13,448 bases of DNA, taken from a virus. Taxonomy: Duplodnaviria; Heunggongvirae; Uroviricota; Caudoviricetes. Positions 1 through 13,448 of the stretch are shown in pieces. The stretch is taken from positions 1 to 13,448 of IMG/VR virus record IMGVR_UViG_2529293240_000021; one strand, written 5' to 3'. The first letter of the stretch is position 1. Each line of letters starts with the position of its first letter. The notes below the pieces were generated by a model. It saw only the letters and a list, made by a program, of their open reading frames with translations. It was not told the origin of the DNA and ran no database searches. Made by a program: the position numbers and the translations under genes.

Positions 1-1545
1 TCATTGAGCTTCTCGATCACTTCGCGCAACCAGTCCTCCGGCTCCACTTCGTTCTGTTTGCAGGTGACCAGCAGACTGTAGATGATCGCCGCACTTTCTC
101 CTCCCTTGTCTGAGCCGAAAAAGAGATAAGTTTTTTCTTCCAACCGCCACCGATCGTAACGCGTTTTCACCGATGTTGTTGTCTATTTCCACCCAGCCGT
201 CACGACAGAACTCGTTCAGCGCATTCCAGTGATTCAGGATATAGTCGAACGCCTTCGCCATCTCCGCATGTTTCGACAGCGTTTTCCTCTGCAACTGTAT
301 CCAGTCGTACAACGACTGCATCAACTGGACGCTTCTGGCTTTTCTGACTGCAAGCCGTTCCTCTGCCGGACTGCCACGTATCTCCGCTTCTATGTCGTAT
401 AACTCTGCTATCCGTCTGAGCGCTTCCTGAGTCATTTCTGTCGGACGGCGCACATCCTCGTCATGGATTTTTCGGCGGGCGTGGGCCAGGCACCCGGCTT
501 CCTTCACCCGGCCCGTTTCGTACAGTACGTTATAACCTGCATAGGCATCAGCCTGCAGTACGCCCTGATACTTTGCCAGGTGGAGCTGCGGATGTTCTCC
601 TTTGCGATCTGCCGAATACGCGAACCAGACGGCTGCCGGCAGGGATGAACCCGCATTACGATCATCCCTGACGTATACCCACAGACGACCCGTTTTCGTC
701 TTTCCGTTCCCCGGGGCCAGTACTTTCACCGGAGTGTCATCTGCGTGCACCTTTCCTGCCTCCAGAACATAGTCATTCAGCGCTATATACAGAGGACGGA
801 GTTTGTCTGCCATTTCTGATACCCAGCGCACCATGGTATTACGGCTCAGCTCCACGCCCTGTCGCGCGTATATTTCTGACTGGCGATATAAAGGGATATG
901 TTCCATATATTTGCTGACCAGGATCCGTGCAAGTAACCCTGCACTGGCATAACCGCGTTCGATCGGTTTAGGAGGAAGTGGTGCCTGAACGATGACATCA
1001 CACCGGCTACAGGCCAGTTTGGGACGTATGGTTTCGATAACTTTAAAGGCGGTATTAATGATATCCAGTTGCTCTGAGATTGTTTCCCCCATTTCTTTCA
1101 GAACACCTCCACAGGCCGGGCAACTGGTTTCAGCAGGCAGAAGGCGATGTGTCTCCCGGGGAAGTTCTGCCGGCAGCGGTTTTCGTGAAGATTTTCGTCC
1201 CGGGAATTCAGGCTTACTGGCGATCGGGTTTTCTGACGGGGGACTGGTGTCAGGTGAATCTGTGACTGACGATGCATCTTCCAGAAGATTTCTGGCTGTG
1301 TTCAGCCGGTTTTCCAGTTCCGACAGTCGTTTTTCTGCCTGTCGGATCTGATTTTCAAGCTTATGACGCTTTTTCTCTGAACTCTGGCCGAACAACATAC
1401 GACGCAACCTGTCGAGTTGCGCTTTCAGCCGTTCAATTTCCTGCTCATAGCCCGCGACCTGACAGGCATACTGTCGAAGCCGACTCTGTTGCTTACGCAA
1501 CATGGCTTTAAGCAGCTCAATATCATCGGGGAGTTCATTGTTCAT
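1..1545 (-). CDS. tnpC: IS66-family transposase TnpC; 3' end appears frameshifted (possible pseudogene)
   Basis: 514-aa ORF with IS66 transposase motifs (CxxC zinc-finger-like region, ...[36 protein letters not shown]). After GRKN the annotated frame becomes Arg-rich low complexity, while another frame encodes a protein-like tail ([43 protein letters not shown]) that runs off the window edge. Confidence 0.8.
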
Positions 1546-1564: not shown

Positions 1565-1912
1565 TTATATCCGGATGCCAGGCCGTTCTGTCCGTTTGGG
1601 ATGTTGCCACGCGATCCCCTCCAGTAGCATGGATAACTGAGCTGGCGTCAGGTGCACTTTCCCTTCCCGGGTCACCGGCCAGACGAAGCGGCCCCGTTCC
1701 AGGCGTTTGGCGAACAGGCATAACCCGTCACGATCGGCCCACAGTATTTTCACCATTTTGCCACTGCGGCCCCGGAAGACGAAGATATGCCCGGAGAACG
1801 GGTCATCTTTCAGCGTGTTCTGCACCTTCGAAGCCAGGCCATTGAAGCCACAACGCATATCTGTGATGCCAGCGATGATCCAGATTTTGGTACCGGTCGG
1901 CAGCGTTATCAT
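1565..1912 (-). CDS. tnpB: IS66-family accessory protein TnpB (Orf2)
   Basis: 115-aa ORF (MITLPTGTKIWIIAGITDMRCGFNGLA...) directly downstream of tnpA with a 4-nt ATGA overlap; size and position match IS66 Orf2. Confidence 0.85.
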   Translation of the reverse strand: MITLPTGTKIWIIAGITDMRCGFNGLASKVQNTLKDDPFSGHIFVFRGRSGKMVKILWADRDGLCLFAKRLERGRFVWPVTREGKVHLTPAQLSMLLEGIAWQHPKRTERPGIRI

Positions 1913-2583
1913 CGGATACCCCCTTTCATTTCGCGGATTAGCGCCCGTAACAGTTCCGGAGTGAGAGGGTCAAACAGTTTTACCACACCTGATTTAAGAT
2001 GCAGCTCGCACCGTGGGACGTTTCCGGGAGCCCCCTCAGGGCGCTCATCATGCTTGTTACGCCAGAAGGGATTTGTAACTGGTCTGGTCGGCTCCGGCGT
2101 ATCAGTCAGAGCCACCGGGACAGGCATGCATTCCTGTATGTCATCATCGCTCAGTAAGCCGTCCTCGTACTGGCTTTTCCATTTAAACAGCAGGTTATTA
2201 TTGATATCGTGTTCTCTGGCGATCCGGGCAACAACAGCCCCAGGCTGTAACGCCTGCTTAGCCAGACGGACCTTAAATTCACGGCTATAGCTGGTTCGCC
2301 GTTCTTTTCGCCATGAGCCTTCTCTGATTTGAGGCTCTGTTAATTCCTTCTTTCTGTTGGCATAAAGGATGGCGTCAAGTTGAGCGAATGAAACTGAATC
2401 GGGCAATGGCCATGCGATACCGGATGCAAGAAATCGCTGAAAAAGCGTATGTATTGTGGAATGACTGAGACCCAGACGCTGAGCGATGGCCCGGATGGTC
2501 AGTTTATCTTCAAATCTTAAACGCAGGGCATCAGGCAAATAAGAACGGAAGCAGGGAATATCTTTTGTTGTCTGGGAATTCAT
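1909..2583 (-). CDS. tnpA: IS66-family accessory protein TnpA (Orf1), long form with extra N-terminal HTH region
   Basis: 224-aa ORF, first gene inside the IS end. C-terminal half (REFKVRLAKQALQPGAVVARIAREHDINNNLLFKWK) resembles the IS66 Orf1 HTH region; N-terminal half has a second HTH-like segment (TIRAIAQRLGLSHSTIHTLFQRF). Confidence 0.8.
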   Translation of the reverse strand: MNSQTTKDIPCFRSYLPDALRLRFEDKLTIRAIAQRLGLSHSTIHTLFQRFLASGIAWPLPDSVSFAQLDAILYANRKKELTEPQIREGSWRKERRTSYSREFKVRLAKQALQPGAVVARIAREHDINNNLLFKWKSQYEDGLLSDDDIQECMPVPVALTDTPEPTRPVTNPFWRNKHDERPEGAPGNVPRCELHLKSGVVKLFDPLTPELLRALIREMKGGIR

Positions 2584-3767: not shown

Positions 3768-4532
3768 ATGGCAAAACCGGACTGGGAGGCCATCGAATCG
3801 GCATACCGGGCCGGAGTCCTTAGCCTCCGTGATATAGGCGAGAAATACGGCGTTACAGAAGGGGCTATCAGGAAGAGGGCCAAAAAGCTTGGTTGGGCAC
3901 GCAGTGGCGGTACGCAGGTTTGCAAAAATGGTACGCAAAAAAGGAAAGTGCGTACCAGCAGAAAGCCTGCCATTACTGGCCTTACACAAAAAAGTACGCA
4001 ACTAAAAACAGAATCTACACCGGATACGAAACCGATACGCGGAATGCGTACCGATCCCCCGACTAACCCATTCCAACCCGGTAACCAGCAGGCATTAAAA
4101 CACGGTGGTTATGCCCGTCGCCTTCTGCTCAAAGATGAGGTGATAGAGGACGCTAAAGCGTTGACGCTCGAGGACGAATTATTTCGCCTTCGTGCTAACA
4201 ACCTTGTCGCTGCAGAGAATATTGGTCGGTGGTTGGTGTCGCTGGAAGATGCTAATGGGGACCAGGAAAGGAAGATGCTGATTGAAAATATCAGCGCCGC
4301 CGAGAAAGCAATGATGCGCAATACAGTTCGTATTGAGTCCATCGTTGGCACGCTTGCGACGGTAGGAAAAATATTTGCTGATACAGCCTACCGCAAGGCC
4401 GCCACTGATAAGGTGTCTCTGGAGGCTGATCGTCTTCGCCGTGATGCAGGTATTGATGATGGCAATGGAGAGCGTGACCTCAATGACTTCTACTCTGACA
4501 TCCAAACCGACGCTGAATCCGGCTTTACGTAG
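3768..4532 (+). CDS. terS: phage terminase small subunit (N-terminal HTH DNA-binding domain)
   Basis: 254-aa ORF with AGGAAG RBS 6 nt upstream. N-terminus MAKPDWEAIESAYRAGVLSLRDIGEKYGVTEGAIRKRAKKLGW is a typical small-terminase HTH. It sits immediately upstream of, and overlaps, the large-terminase ORF. Confidence 0.7.
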   Translation: MAKPDWEAIESAYRAGVLSLRDIGEKYGVTEGAIRKRAKKLGWARSGGTQVCKNGTQKRKVRTSRKPAITGLTQKSTQLKTESTPDTKPIRGMRTDPPTNPFQPGNQQALKHGGYARRLLLKDEVIEDAKALTLEDELFRLRANNLVAAENIGRWLVSLEDANGDQERKMLIENISAAEKAMMRNTVRIESIVGTLATVGKIFADTAYRKAATDKVSLEADRLRRDAGIDDGNGERDLNDFYSDIQTDAESGFT

Positions 4533-5150
4533 TTTCTGGACTATGCGGGCACGTAACAAAGTGCTTTATGGTGGTCGGTCATCGTCAAAATCATGGGATG
4601 CCGCTGGCATTGCCATATTTCTGTCGAATAAATACACCCTGCGTTTTTGTTGTGCCCGTCAGATCCAGAATAAAATCGAAGAGTCGGTGTATACCCTGCT
4701 CAAAATTCAGATAGACAGGTTTGGTCTGCGGCACCGTTTCCGTATTCTGAACAACAAAATCATTAACCGGGTTACTGGCTCGGAATTTGTTTTTTATGGA
4801 TTATGGCGCAACATCGAAGAAATTAAGTCACTGGAGGGGATCGATGTGTTGTGGCTGGAAGAAGCCCACGCACTGACGGAATACCAGTGGAAAATTCTGG
4901 AGCCAACGATCCGTAAAGAGGGTTCGGAATGCTGGTTCATATTCAACCCCGGACTTGTTACTGATTTCGTCTGGCGCAACTTCGTTGTTGATCCGCCCGA
5001 AGGCACTCTCATCCGCAAAATTAACTATGACGAAAATCCGTTTCTGTCTGACACCATGCTTAAGGTTATCGACGCGGCGCGACGCCGTGATCCGGATGGT
5101 TTTAAACATGTGTATGAGGGCGTTCCGGAGTCTGATGATGATGCGGCAAT
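4483..5150 (+). pseudogene. terL: terminase large subunit, N-terminal ATPase fragment, interrupted by IS2
   Basis: ORF with a Walker-A-like motif (VLYGGRSSSKSW) and Walker-B-like DVLWLEEAH. The reading frame runs into the IS2 left end and stops 6 codons later. Start chosen at ATG 4483 (GGAG 12 nt upstream); 4543 is an alternative. Confidence 0.85.
5146..5150. repeat. 5-bp target-site duplication (GCAAT), left copy, flanking IS2
   Basis: GCAAT immediately precedes the IS2 left terminus TAGACTGGCC at 5151; an identical copy follows the right terminus. Confidence 0.9.
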
Positions 5151-5241
5151 TAGACTGGCCCCCTGAATCTCCAGACAACCAGTATCACTTATTTAAGTGA
5201 TAGTCTTAATACTAGTTTTTAGACTAGTCATTGGAGAACAG

Positions 5242-5607
5242 ATGATTGATGTCTTAGGGCCGGAGAAACGCAGACGGCGTACCACACAGGAAAAGATCGC
5301 AATTGTTCAGCAGAGCTTTGAACCGGGGATGACGGTCTCCCTCGTTGCCCGGCAACATGGTGTAGCAGCCAGCCAGTTATTTCTCTGGCGTAAGCAATAC
5401 CAGGAAGGAAGTCTTACTGCTGTGGCCGCCGGAGAACAGGTTGTTCCTGCCTCTGAACTTGCTGCCGCCATGAAGCAGATTAAAGAACTCCAGCGCCTGC
5501 TCGGCAAGAAAACGATGGAAAATGAACTCCTCAAAGAAGCCGTTGAATATGGACGGGCAAAAAAGTGGATAGCGCACGCGCCCTTATTGCCCGGGGATGG
5601 GGAGTAA
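5242..5607 (+). CDS. insC: IS2 OrfA (InsC), HTH protein
   Basis: 121-aa [59 protein letters not shown]..., matching IS2 InsC; GGAG RBS upstream. Confidence 0.9.
5559..5565 (+). promoter_or_regulatory. -1 programmed ribosomal frameshift slippery heptamer (A AAA AAG) of IS2
   Basis: AAAAAAG lies in X XXY YYZ register with the insC frame, and insD is open in the -1 frame from this point (frame arithmetic: insC at position mod 3 = 1, insD at mod 3 = 0). Confidence 0.8.
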
Positions 5608-6470
5608 GCTTAGTCAGCCGTTGTCTCCGGGTGTCGCGTGCGCAGTTGCACGTCATTCTCAGACGAACCGATGACTGGATGGATGGCCGCCGCAGTCGTC
5701 ACACTGATGATACGGATGTGCTTCTCCGTATACACCATGTTATCGGAGAGCTGCCCACGTATGGTTATCGTCGGGTATGGGCGCTGCTTCGCAGACAGGC
5801 AGAACTTGATGGTATGCCTGCGATCAATGCCAAACGTGTTTACCGGATCATGCGCCAGAATGCGCTGTTGCTTGAGCGAAAACCTGCTGTACCGCCATCG
5901 AAACGGGCACATACAGGCAGAGTAGCCGTGAAAGAAAGCAATCAGCGATGGTGCTCTGACGGGTTCGAGTTCTGCTGTGATAACGGAGAGAGACTGCGTG
6001 TCACGTTCGCGCTGGACTGCTGTGATCGTGAGGCACTGCACTGGGCGGTGACTACCGGCGGCTTCAACAGTGAAACAGTACAGGACGTCATGCTGGGAGC
6101 GGTGGAACGCCGCTTCGGCAACGATCTTCCGTCGTCTCCAGTGGAGTGGCTGACGGATAATGGTTCATGCTACCGGGCTAATGAAACACGCCAGTTCGCC
6201 CGGATGTTGGGACTTGAACCGAAGAACACGGCGGTGCGGAGTCCGGAGAGTAACGGAATAGCAGAGAGCTTCGTGAAAACGATAAAGCGTGACTACATCA
6301 GTATCATGCCCAAACCAGACGGGTTAACGGCAGCAAAGAACCTTGCAGAGGCGTTCGAGCATTATAACGAATGGCATCCGCATAGTGCGCTGGGTTATCG
6401 CTCGCCACGGGAATATCTGCGGCAGCGGGCTTGTAATGGGTTAAGTGATAACAGATGTCTGGAAATATAG
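5565..6470 (+). CDS. insD: IS2 OrfB (InsD), DDE transposase catalytic domain; expressed as InsCD fusion by -1 frameshifting
   Basis: 301-aa [41 protein letters not shown]... matching IS2 InsD; begins at the slip site in the -1 frame relative to insC. Confidence 0.9.
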
Positions 6471-6481
6471 GGGCAAATCCA

Positions 6482-6486
6482 GCAAT
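6482..6486. repeat. 5-bp target-site duplication (GCAAT), right copy, flanking IS2
   Basis: GCAAT immediately follows the IS2 right terminus ...CAAATCCA at 6481. Confidence 0.9.
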
Positions 6487-7222
6487 CATCAAACTGTCTT
6501 GGATAGAAGCCGCAGTGGATGCGCACAAAACGTTAAATTTCGAACCCAGTGGAAGAAAGCGTATTGGCTTTGACGTGGCTGACAGTGGTACAGATAAGTG
6601 CGCTAACGTTTACCGTCACGGATCCGTTGTTTTCTGGGCCGACGAATGGAAGGCCAAAGAAGATGAATTACTGAAGAGCTGCCAGCGTACTTATCAGGCG
6701 GCGCTGGAGCGTGAAGCAGATATTGTTTACGACTCTATCGGTGTTGGTGCGTCTGCCGGTGCTAAATTCTCTGAAATTAACGCTGACCGGAAGAGCGAGA
6801 ACGCATACGCGCGACGTGTGAATTACCAGAGGTTTAACGCCGGTGCTGGTGTGCATGAGCCAGATGACGAGTACAACGGCATCCCCAACAAAGACTTTTT
6901 CGCAAATCTTAAGGCTCAGGCATGGTGGCTGGTGGCTGACCGTTTCAGAAATACGTTTAACGCCATTAACAACGGAGAACAGTATCCTGTGGATGAGCTG
7001 ATCAGCATAGATTCTCGTTGTCCGTTGCTTGAAAAGCTGAAACTGGAACTGACAACACCTCATCGTGATTTCGACCGTAACGGACGTGTGATGGTCGAAA
7101 GTAAAAAAGACCTCGCAAAACGCGAGATACCGTCACCAAACGTTGCTGATGCATTCATTATGGCCTTCGCGCCAATCGATACATCGCTGGATATCTGGGA
7201 ACAGCTGGGGAGACAGGCCTGA
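6482..7222 (+). pseudogene. terL: terminase large subunit, C-terminal (nuclease) fragment, separated from its 5' part by IS2
   Basis: Open frame continues directly from the IS2 right end to a stop at 7220-7222. Joining to 4483-5150 after removing IS2 and one GCAAT copy is in frame. The stop overlaps the portal start (TGATG). Confidence 0.85.
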
Positions 7223-11067: not shown

Positions 11068-12009
11068 ATGATTACTTTTGATCAGGCAACCGTTGACAGC
11101 TCTGGTGCCTTTCTCATCGGGGAGCTGGAGCGACTCGACCAGACGCTGAACCTGCCACTGGTGGGGTACACCTGGAGCCGCGATATTCAACTGCGTGAAG
11201 ACGTCTCCATCGCAGATGACATTTCCAGCTGGACGAATACCAGCTTCGCCGCTGCGGGTACTGGCGCAAATCCGAATGGAAAAAACTGGGTAGGCAAAGA
11301 CTCAACCGCTATTGCTGGCGTGAACGTGGATATCGGCAAATCCGGTAACCCGCTGAACCTGTGGGGGATGGAACTTGGCTGGACGGTCATAGAATTGCAG
11401 GCTGCTCAGCAGGTCGGCCGCCCGATTGATACGCAGAAGTATGACGGTATGCAACTGAAATGGCAGATGGATAACGATGAACAGGTATATGTTGGCGATT
11501 CCGCATTAAACCTGAAAGGCCTTGTTACCCTGGACGGCGTGCCTGTCAACAACGCTGCCAAAACGTGGGCAACCTCAACACCGGACGAAATCCGCGCAAG
11601 CATTAACCAGGTGCTGTCTGATGCGTGGGCCGCTTCTGGTTACTCTGTGGTTCCGCGTGATTTGCTGATCCCGCCTGAGCAGTTTGCTCTGTTGTCCAGC
11701 ATCATCGTTTCATCTGCAGGTAACCAGTCCCTGTTGACGTACCTTCAGACCAACACCATCAGCTATCACCAGAACGGTGTTCCGCTGAATATCCGCGCGG
11801 TTAAATGGCTGAAAGGCCGTGGTGTGGGGAATAAGGATCGCATGGTTGCGTACACCAACGATAAAAAATACGTCCGCTACCCGCTGGTTCCGCTTCAGAG
11901 CGTGCCGGTGCAGTATCGCGGTCTGTATCAGATCGTCACTTACTACGGCAAGCTGGGTGCAGTCGAGCCAGTGTACAAAGAAACCATTTCGTACGTTGAT
12001 GGCATTTAA
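11068..12009 (+). CDS. putative major capsid protein
   Basis: 313-aa ORF with strong RBS (AAGGAA 8 nt upstream), last gene of the head block and followed by a stable hairpin. Size and position fit a major capsid protein. Confidence 0.6.
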   Translation: MITFDQATVDSSGAFLIGELERLDQTLNLPLVGYTWSRDIQLREDVSIADDISSWTNTSFAAAGTGANPNGKNWVGKDSTAIAGVNVDIGKSGNPLNLWGMELGWTVIELQAAQQVGRPIDTQKYDGMQLKWQMDNDEQVYVGDSALNLKGLVTLDGVPVNNAAKTWATSTPDEIRASINQVLSDAWAASGYSVVPRDLLIPPEQFALLSSIIVSSAGNQSLLTYLQTNTISYHQNGVPLNIRAVKWLKGRGVGNKDRMVAYTNDKKYVRYPLVPLQSVPVQYRGLYQIVTYYGKLGAVEPVYKETISYVDGI

Positions 12010-12016
12010 CAGCCAC

Positions 12017-12037
12017 ATGGCCCCCTGGCGGGGCCAT
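12017..12037 (+). other. GC-rich stem-loop (9-bp stem ATGGCCCCC / GGGGGCCAT, 3-nt loop) just downstream of the capsid gene; no U-tract
   Basis: Perfect inverted repeat read directly from the sequence, starting 8 nt after the capsid stop codon and 14 nt before the next start codon. Confidence 0.45.
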
Positions 12038-12050
12038 TAAGGATGACCCG

Positions 12051-12249
12051 ATGGCAAAAAATGATGCAGTAATACACGTACATACCCCGTTTGTGCTCAC
12101 GCTTCCCGACGGTTCTCGGCGCGAGTTTGTTAAAGGCCGTCATGTTGTGGAGGAAGACGTTGCCACGCACTGGTTCACTCGTGCGCACGCGGAAGTATCC
12201 GTTGGCAAAGCCACAGACGCGCGTAACGAGGTAAAAAATGCCAAAGAAT
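12051..12249 (+). pseudogene. small phage ORF downstream of capsid gene, 3' end replaced by IS3-family insertion
   Basis: ORF with RBS (AAGGATG) begins at 12051. The IS terminus (TGAGGTGTACTGGCAATAGCGGACAC) begins at 12250 inside codon 67, so the last 14 codons of the 81-aa ORF are IS-derived. Confidence 0.4.
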
Positions 12250-12292
12250 TGAGGTGTACTGGCAATAGCGGACACTACCATTTGTTCTTTTT

Positions 12293-13111
12293 TTAAGCAG
12301 CCATCTGATGATATTTTTCCCTGAAGGCTGCCGGGGAGATATTCCCCAGACGAGAGTGACGACGCTGACGATTGTAGAAAATCTCAATGTATTCCCGTAT
12401 TACTGAGATGGCTTCATCCCGGTTATTAAAACGATAGTGGCTCAGGCTCTCATTTTTCAGAGTTCCCCAGAAGCTTTCCATCGGAGCGTTGTCGTAACAG
12501 TTACCTTTACGCGACATTGATGTTTTCAGACCAAACTGCTCCTGTATGACCCGGTAATCGTATGCGCAGTACTGTGAACCTCGATCAGAGTGGTGGATTA
12601 GCCCGGCAGGTGGGCGCTGGCTCCTGAGCGCCATAAACAGGGCTTTACCTGTCAGCTCTTTTGTCACGCGCTCTCCCATGGCGTAGCCGACAATTTCGCA
12701 CGTATAAACATCTTTGATGCCAGCGAGGTACAACCATCCCTCCTGTGTGGCAACATACGTCAGGTCCGCCACCCAGACCTGATTTGGTGCTGTAGGAGCG
12801 AACGTCTGGTTCAGCAGATTTGGCGCAACTGGCAGATTGTGGTTCGGGTTCGTAGTCGCTCTGAACTTGCGTTTCTGCTTACAGCGTAGCCTTAGCTCCT
12901 TACGAAGACGTGCCAGTCGGTCACGACCAACGATGATGCCATTCTCTGCCAGCTCCGTCTGGAGCCGCCGGGTTCCATATGTTTCGCGAGTGCGGATATG
13001 TGCCACCTTAATCTCCAGTTTTAGCCGCTCATCACTTTGTTTTCTGTCTGAGGGTTCATGCTGTACCCAGTTGTAATAACCGCTCCTGGATACACCAAAT
13101 ACCTGACACAT
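12293..13111 (-). CDS. IS3-family transposase OrfB (DDE catalytic domain)
   Basis: 272-aa ORF with integrase-core motifs (VWVADLTY, HHSDRGSQY, CYDNAPMESF). Its frame stays open upstream to the A-run at 13191-13197. Confidence 0.85.
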   Translation of the reverse strand: MCQVFGVSRSGYYNWVQHEPSDRKQSDERLKLEIKVAHIRTRETYGTRRLQTELAENGIIVGRDRLARLRKELRLRCKQKRKFRATTNPNHNLPVAPNLLNQTFAPTAPNQVWVADLTYVATQEGWLYLAGIKDVYTCEIVGYAMGERVTKELTGKALFMALRSQRPPAGLIHHSDRGSQYCAYDYRVIQEQFGLKTSMSRKGNCYDNAPMESFWGTLKNESLSHYRFNNRDEAISVIREYIEIFYNRQRRHSRLGNISPAAFREKYHQMAA

Positions 13112-13160
13112 CGCTTCAATGGGAAATTGTTGTCGCCATTGTTCGATTAACGCGTATTTT

Positions 13161-13448
13161 TCAGCGACTCCTGTGCAAAATACGCTGTTGCTTTTTTAAT
13201 ATATCTCGCTCAAGGCGAGCTTCATTTAACGCCTTACGCAGTTGCAGAATTTCAGATTCCAGTTCAGCCACCGTGCGGGAACCAGGAGTACCGAGCCCTT
13301 TTCTGGCGGCGGTAACCCATTGTCCTAAAGTGCCTTCAGGAAGGGATAATCGGGAAGCGCCTTCACTGATCGAAGGTTGATTTTCAAGAACCGTTCTGAC
13401 AGCTTCGGCTTTGAACTCTTTAGAGTAACGTTGGGTTTTTCTGCTCAT
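13161..13448 (-). CDS. IS3-family OrfA (HTH / leucine-zipper protein)
   Basis: 95-aa ORF starting at the last base of the window (ATG at 13446-13448, minus strand): MSRKTQRYSKEFKAEAVRTVLENQ...; C-terminal tail may be altered (see findings). Confidence 0.85.
   Translation of the reverse strand: MSRKTQRYSKEFKAEAVRTVLENQPSISEGASRLSLPEGTLGQWVTAARKGLGTPGSRTVAELESEILQLRKALNEARLERDILKKQQRILHRSR
13191..13197 (-). promoter_or_regulatory. A6G slippery run at the orfA/orfB junction of the IS600-like element (frame relation atypical)
   Basis: Minus strand reads TTA AAA AAG in the orfA frame, but orfB lies in the +1 frame, not the -1 frame, relative to orfA by coordinate arithmetic. Confidence 0.55.

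Follow-up and report, generated by a model that had tools for sequence, protein, structure and literature searches.

In the window, by which the whole stretch of 13,448 nt that was analysed is meant, the IS600 copy at the right-hand edge differs from the usual element in having six rather than seven A's at its slip site, and its orfB lies in the +1 instead of the -1 frame relative to orfA. The -1 arrangement of orfA and orfB, which was found in the usual IS600 copies and in all readable orthologues, is absent here owing to a one-base lesion in an otherwise 99.6% identical element; hence, the copy is a defective or mis-sequenced member of IS600 and not a separate family. The element is an ordinary IS600 in a degraded Shigella flexneri prophage, which is known biology, and no new recoding mechanism is involved. 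Chance is no issue: the copy departs at one defined base from a reference family with many members. The features concerned are as follows:

12250..13448, minus strand: IS600 (IS3 family), of whose 1,264 bp the right-hand 1,199 bp are present
13448..13161, minus strand: orfA as written, 95 aa, with the tail KKQQRILHRSR before the stop codon, of which QQRILHRSR is foreign (frame translation)
13197..13191, minus strand: slip site, A_AAA_AAG in the orfA frame (A6, with the G at 13191); in the usual IS600, A_AAA_AAA and then G
13191..13147, minus strand: native OrfA C-terminal tail ATAYFAQESLKNTR with its stop codon, which here has moved to the -1 frame (the 100-aa IS600 ORF1 proteins have the same tail)
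13189..13149, minus strand: predicted hairpin with the core stem GCGUAUUUU/AAAAUACGC (MFE -13.1 kcal/mol, z = -2.1)
13195..13112, minus strand: upstream extension of the orfB frame, which is the OrfAB linker (frame translation)
13111..12293, minus strand: orfB, 272 aa, DDE (rve) catalytic part of the transposase (NF033516, 331.8 bits, profile positions 106-369)
12250..12279, minus strand: right terminal inverted repeat of IS600, ending GGTAGTGTCCGCTATTGCCAGTACACCTCA and the same as the right ends of the reference loci L001-L003
12051..12296, plus strand: chimeric ORF of 81 aa, a STY1053-family phage gene truncated by IS600 and reading into the IS end

The full IS600 length of 1,264 bp was measured on the copy of pINV (L001). 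The window edge coincides with the ATG of orfA, and about 64 bp including the left inverted repeat lie outside the window. ISfinder isoforms share at least 95% DNA identity, and the stretch 12250..13448 was 99.5-99.7% identical over its 1,199 bp to copies that thousands of E. coli records annotate as 'IS3-like element IS600 family transposase'. IS600 belongs to the IS3 group of the IS3 family and was first described in Shigella sonnei. The two-ORF layout of the IS3 family is present, with orfA (helix-turn-helix) followed by orfB (DDE/rve catalytic domain). Likeness to the IS600 copies in RefSeq concerns the right end, the orfA/orfB layout and the sequence of the downstream hairpin, and 271 of the 272 OrfB residues are identical to those of the pINV copy. 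The terminal inverted repeats of such elements end in 5'-TG...CA-3'. The element ends with TGAGGTG... at 12250 (...CACCTCA on the minus strand) exactly as the reference copies do, and homology to uninterrupted prophages stops at 12249. Besides the A-run and the frame of orfB, the window copy differs from the usual IS600 in the last 14 residues of OrfA, which are replaced by 9 foreign ones, and in the private changes L25P in OrfA and M149V in OrfB.

The original prediction had been that orfB is in the +1 frame relative to orfA, that the run consists of six A's, that OrfA as annotated ends in the tail given above and that the -1 frame encodes a native OrfA tail; each of these readings was recovered. 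The start positions are 337 nt apart (13448-13111), which is 1 mod 3 and corresponds to +1. The IS2 of the window served as internal control for this arithmetic, its orfA/orfB offset of 368 being 2 mod 3, the normal -1. Positions 13199..13191 read TTAAAAAAG on the minus strand; the six A's occupy 13197..13192 and appear as T6 on the plus strand. In the zero frame, orfA crosses the run as TTA AAA AAG CAA CAG ... TGA, and the TTA AAA AAG of the A6 form itself contains the classic A_AAA_AAG heptamer. The A6 site is still slippery, but it slips to the wrong frame for OrfAB: from the run, translation in the -1 frame gives KKATAYFAQESLKNTR (K K A T A Y F A Q E S L K N T R) and ends with the stop codon TAA at 13149..13147. 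Upstream of orfB, its frame contains no stop codon until a TAA at 13198..13196, directly at the run. The linker residues, open from the A-run, are K S N S V F C T G V A E K Y A L I E Q W R Q Q F P I E A, and this linker is present solely in the frameshifted product.

When one A was added to the run in silico, a 100-aa OrfA ending in ...DILKKATAYFAQESLKNTR and an orfB at -1 were obtained, as had been proposed. The same state was found in the pINV copy, which has seven A's, a 100-aa OrfA with this ending and a joined CDS of 385 aa. Against the IS3 transposase profile NF033516 (NCBIfam), OrfA gave a weak N-terminal match (positions 1-86). The 385-aa fusion through the A-run gave one continuous match covering positions 1-369 of 369 with 410 bits. 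As the profile match of the fusion is unbroken, the fused OrfAB is the family-conformant transposase and the run is the intended frame junction.

The length of the A-run in other copies was determined with two slip-site queries, one of 84 nt with A7 and one of 83 nt with A6, with about 1,330 E. coli records spanning the site. The A7 query matched with 100% identity in all 40 E. coli records listed, whereas an exact full-length match of the A6 query was present in 6 of the roughly 1,330 records and its other listed matches show a one-base gap. In the protein collection, the 100-aa OrfA with the predicted tail, named 'IS600 ORF1' or 'ORF1-like', was found on at least 1000 contigs. The E. coli records, the orthologous loci described below and the protein collection therefore agree with the claim that the usual IS600 has A7, an orfB at -1 and a 100-aa OrfA. 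Functional reference copies with A6 and the same +1 relationship, which would have spoken against a lesion, were searched for and none was found; those A6 copies that exist are scattered. The suggestion of either a 1-nt homopolymer deletion or a sequencing error is supported as a pair of readings, A7 being the norm. The heptamers A_AAA_AAG and A_AAA_AAA together make up 72% of those in IS1 and IS3 elements (PMC4066793), so that the A7 form is a standard -1 signal.

The predicted hairpin starts 5 nt past the heptamer in the window copy and 6 nt past it in the A7 form, which falls inside the spacing of 4-10 nt by which IS3-family stimulators are defined (PMC4066793). From its fold and position, the hairpin is a candidate -1 frameshift stimulator. 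The fold of a longer region was considered as stimulator and discarded as no better than shuffled sequences (z = -0.64), and the short hairpin alone was kept. An Rfam scan for frameshift stimulators gave no hit above the gathering score. A sub-threshold match to the ALIL pseudoknot (RF01497) was seen at 13084-13186 on the minus strand (14.3 bits compared to a gathering score of 50, E = 0.09-0.25); it begins directly downstream of the slip site and its first 16 nt (GCGUAUUUUGCACAG) resemble the family consensus, though the match is not significant. A literature search on frameshifting in IS600 or on strain SFJ17B returned nothing useful.

In the usual element, ribosomes translating orfA would slip by -1 at A_AAA_AAA, helped by the hairpin 6 nt downstream, and produce the 385-aa OrfAB, while those which do not slip would complete the 100-aa OrfA. 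In the A6 copy, the unshifted product would be the 95-aa OrfA with its foreign 9-residue tail. A -1 slip on A_AAA_AAG, one of the heptamers that shift most efficiently in E. coli (PMC4066793), would lead through the 15-codon tail to the native 100-aa OrfA and not to OrfAB. Access to orfB would require a +1 or -2 ribosomal event or an RNA polymerase dropping one A, none of which is expected to be efficient on six A's. The fusions predicted from A6 are 384 aa long after a +1 shift and 385 aa long, identical to wild type, after a -2 shift. As no efficient shift into orfB is expected, the A6 copy, if its sequence is right, would produce little or no transposase and be null or nearly so. It would then be a decaying relic which is at best mobilised by the transposase of other copies.

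The chimeric 81-aa ORF was used as marker for the orthologous prophage::IS600 insertion (loci L004-L023). The exact protein occurs on 461 contigs, one of which is named for S. flexneri 2a 2457T, and its intact homologues have 73 aa. With the chimeric protein on that many contigs, the insertion is old and shared. The orthologous locus was taken from 12 S. flexneri assemblies, one of which is masked at the IS. In all 11 readable ones, the copy has A7, L25 and a 100-aa OrfA. The same insertion was not found in 5,426 complete E. coli genomes, where the phage part matches with 99.7% without the IS; this directed attention to Shigella. Among about 15 billion proteins, the exact 95-aa OrfA of the window, including L25P, is present on one public contig only, a 16.5-kb draft contig of S. 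flexneri SFJ17B (EGM60013.1), and an A7 version of the L25P OrfA was not found in this collection.

Over 10.8 kb, the window and S. flexneri 5 str. 8401 differ by 24 substitutions and by a single indel, which is the A-run. Seventeen other runs of at least six agree between the two sequences, and of the three runs of at least seven in the comparable 10.8 kb the two other than the A-run are correct. A base-by-base comparison with seven genomes showed the strain to be somewhat divergent, with about 10 substitutions of its own across 9.6 kb of flanking sequence outside IS600. The IS600 copy itself has three private substitutions, at 13375 (OrfA L25P), 12667 (OrfB M149V) and 12461 (synonymous). The first is a T>C change on the minus strand in OrfA codon 25, in the helix-turn-helix region, and is found in no other copy examined. 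At 13206, 12893 and 12534, the window has the general IS600 base and the orthologues share another one (including OrfB F193S). A strain in an outgroup position, gene conversion by another copy or a consensus from several IS copies are possible reasons. A contig whose IS part is a consensus collapsed from many copies would account for the three sites, and divergence of an outgroup lineage explains them equally well.

The orthologous copies are flanked by ...TAT on one side and ATT... on the other, i.e., without a 3-bp target duplication, in contrast to the clean 3-bp target duplications of other IS600 copies. At the left end of the orthologous loci, the inverted repeat is present with one substitution, G>A (TGAGATAG). 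The flanks not being duplicated and the left inverted repeat being mutated, the data suggest an IS-mediated rearrangement, with this IS600 at a rearrangement or deletion junction between a capsid module and an early region that is Mu-like. In L021 (positions 11461-13095) and in other orthologous loci, a transposase gene of the Mu type (HTH_Tnp_Mu, DDE_2) follows beyond the left end of IS600, in the part that would adjoin the right edge of the window. On the far side of the window, positions 1-2650 contain an IS66-family element on the minus strand (TnpA 1909..2583, TnpB 1565..1912 and a 514-aa transposase 1..1545). The S. flexneri references compared have a different, IS3-family element on this side and homology begins at window position 2666. 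The IS2 at about 5170-6500 (orfA 5197..5607, orfB 5565..6470) splits the gene of the terminase large subunit, a fragment of which is found at 4375..5166. The prophage has been thoroughly degraded by at least three IS elements.

Outside this locus, A6 copies of IS600 were found scattered over different loci in different assemblies, often in an IS that has length errors elsewhere, too. Three A6 copies of GCA_949812105.1 are shortened to A6 in the second A7 run of IS600 as well. Likewise, at L026-L029 (GCA_949812105.1 and GCA_974490245.1) the A7 runs at the slip site and near the right end are both called A6 in several copies, leaving an element of 1,262 bp; it looks as if homopolymers had been systematically under-called there. 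An A6 copy is also present in at least 25 plasmid records, which are clustered by submission batch. In five plasmid assemblies, a different IS600 copy is A6 in each, and two of these five copies have further length anomalies. Where an insertion is shared, as for trbC::IS600, 37 of the plasmid records listed have the A7 length, and the remaining one is shorter by a single base.

The A6 copy in hsdR of E. coli O145:H28 (hsdR::IS600) was considered as a test of heritability and rejected. The insertion occurs in RM12581 and RM13514 only, and the records of both strains differ by 2 bp in length, which makes the test uninformative. Both A6 loci are shared between the two chromosomes (NZ_CP007136.1 and NZ_CP006027.1, respectively), which differ by 2 bp, with coordinates offset by 2; the direct comparison of coordinates covered hsdR::IS600. 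The occurrence of A6 copies at several sites was also dismissed as proof that A6 elements transpose, since the same assemblies shorten the second A7 run, too. PGAP (NCBI) joins some A6 copies as 'programmed frameshift' (WP_094188148.1 and WP_085948182.1), and the joined loci are L002 (NZ_CP065613.1, 4362658-4363813) and L003 (NZ_CP007136.1, 2373470-2374625). Their joined span of 1,156 nt implies a +1 join. Probably, these joined CDS are annotation artefacts on defective or mis-sequenced copies; the label is assigned automatically by similarity and is no evidence of function.

A real loss of one A from the A7 run of a decaying IS600 copy is given about an even chance. The A would have been lost in the bacterium by replication slippage in the homopolymer. 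The A-run is the sole indel against strain 8401 and the 17 other runs agree; for a lineage that has diverged by about 10 private substitutions, a single indel of its own at a homopolymer hot spot is unsurprising. The three private substitutions of the IS copy, two of which change amino acids, fit relaxed selection on a dead copy, and the orthologues, with no matching 3-bp duplication and with a mutated left repeat, indicate an old and immobile one. Against a real deletion stands that the allele is private to one contig and lies in a run of the kind where sequencing errors fall. That the bacterium has A7 and the draft was under-called by one base, so that the +1 frame and the 95-aa OrfA exist in the database only, is given slightly less than an even chance. 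The exact OrfA is found on the single SFJ17B draft contig and nowhere else, and all 11 readable orthologues have A7. The 2011-era drafts of the SFJ17B series were presumably pyrosequenced for the most part; pyrosequencing is prone to homopolymer miscalls, and the consensus over a multi-copy repeat may be poor. Artefactual A6 calls are evidently common, given that A6 elsewhere is scattered, clustered by batch and accompanied by length anomalies: the doubly shortened copies of GCA_949812105.1, the five plasmids with a different A6 copy each, the grouping of plasmid records by submission and the one short trbC::IS600 record all point in this direction. However, the assembly is correct at the two other runs of at least seven and free of any other indel in 10.8 kb against strain 8401, and a homopolymer-prone chemistry would not be expected to produce errors like the three private substitutions of the IS copy. 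Furthermore, the rate of real slippage in an unselected A7 run over a branch of this length is estimated to be comparable to or above the consensus error rate, which counts against an artefact as well.

It is very improbable that A6 with orfB at +1 is a working variant which makes OrfAB by a +1 or -2 frameshift on A_AAA_AAG or by an RNA polymerase skipping an A. After a -2 shift, the product would be the 385-aa OrfAB of the wild type, and after a +1 shift it would be 384 aa long; a subgroup of IS3 with +1 slippage exists (IS1447, PMC6211511), and A6 copies with clean 3-bp duplications are present at several distinct sites, some of them in freshly split genes. The PGAP-joined CDS would fit as well, but their label is automatic and similarity-based. 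Set against this, only 6 of about 1,330 E. coli records have A6, which was in no case the state of the orthologues at a shared insertion, the genomes with several A6 copies err in other homopolymers, which renders their A6 calls suspect, and the spacing of the hairpin is in favour of a -1 slip, after which ribosomes would enter the OrfA tail here. In IS1447 itself, the run must have at least seven A's, and no frameshift product was obtained from A6 mutants (PMC6211511). Less probable still is a recurring functional variant of low activity, in which -1 slippage would restore OrfA and rare -2 or +1 events or loss of an A in the transcript would give a trickle of OrfAB; if this were true, the change from A7 to A6 would be a reversible homopolymer switch for transposase output.

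A real or apparent loss of one A carries little biological weight, as hundreds of IS copies are present in Shigella genomes and dead or mis-sequenced ones are expected. Its value lies in annotation and in caution about homopolymer errors. The 'programmed frameshift' labels on A6 copies need a +1 shift and not the -1 shift of the family, and RefSeq thus contains transposases that probably do not exist. Since the A7 slip site is sensitive to homopolymer errors, counts of 'intact' IS600 are unreliable in unpolished long-read or pyrosequenced genomes, and so are IS600 'pseudogenes' in assemblies like GCA_949812105.1 and GCA_974490245.1.

Among known systems, IS911, IS3 and IS150 rely on A_AAA_AAG and a structure downstream of it for programmed ribosomal frameshifting by -1 (PMC4066793). 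The window copy resembles them in having A_AAA_AAG in the zero frame and a hairpin 5 nt downstream; however, the -1 frame is orfB in those elements, whereas in the window copy it is a dead end of 15 codons, the native OrfA tail. The IS1447 subgroup of the IS3 family in Firmicutes uses +1 transcriptional slippage on A9 (PMC6211511), and the window copy resembles it in having orfB at +1, reached across an A-run. In contrast to IS1447, in which A7-A9 is conserved across the subgroup, neither a conserved run of at least A7 nor a conserved +1 arrangement was found here: the run is A6, and its +1 frame is a rare deviation from the A7/-1 norm of IS600 and absent from the orthologues.
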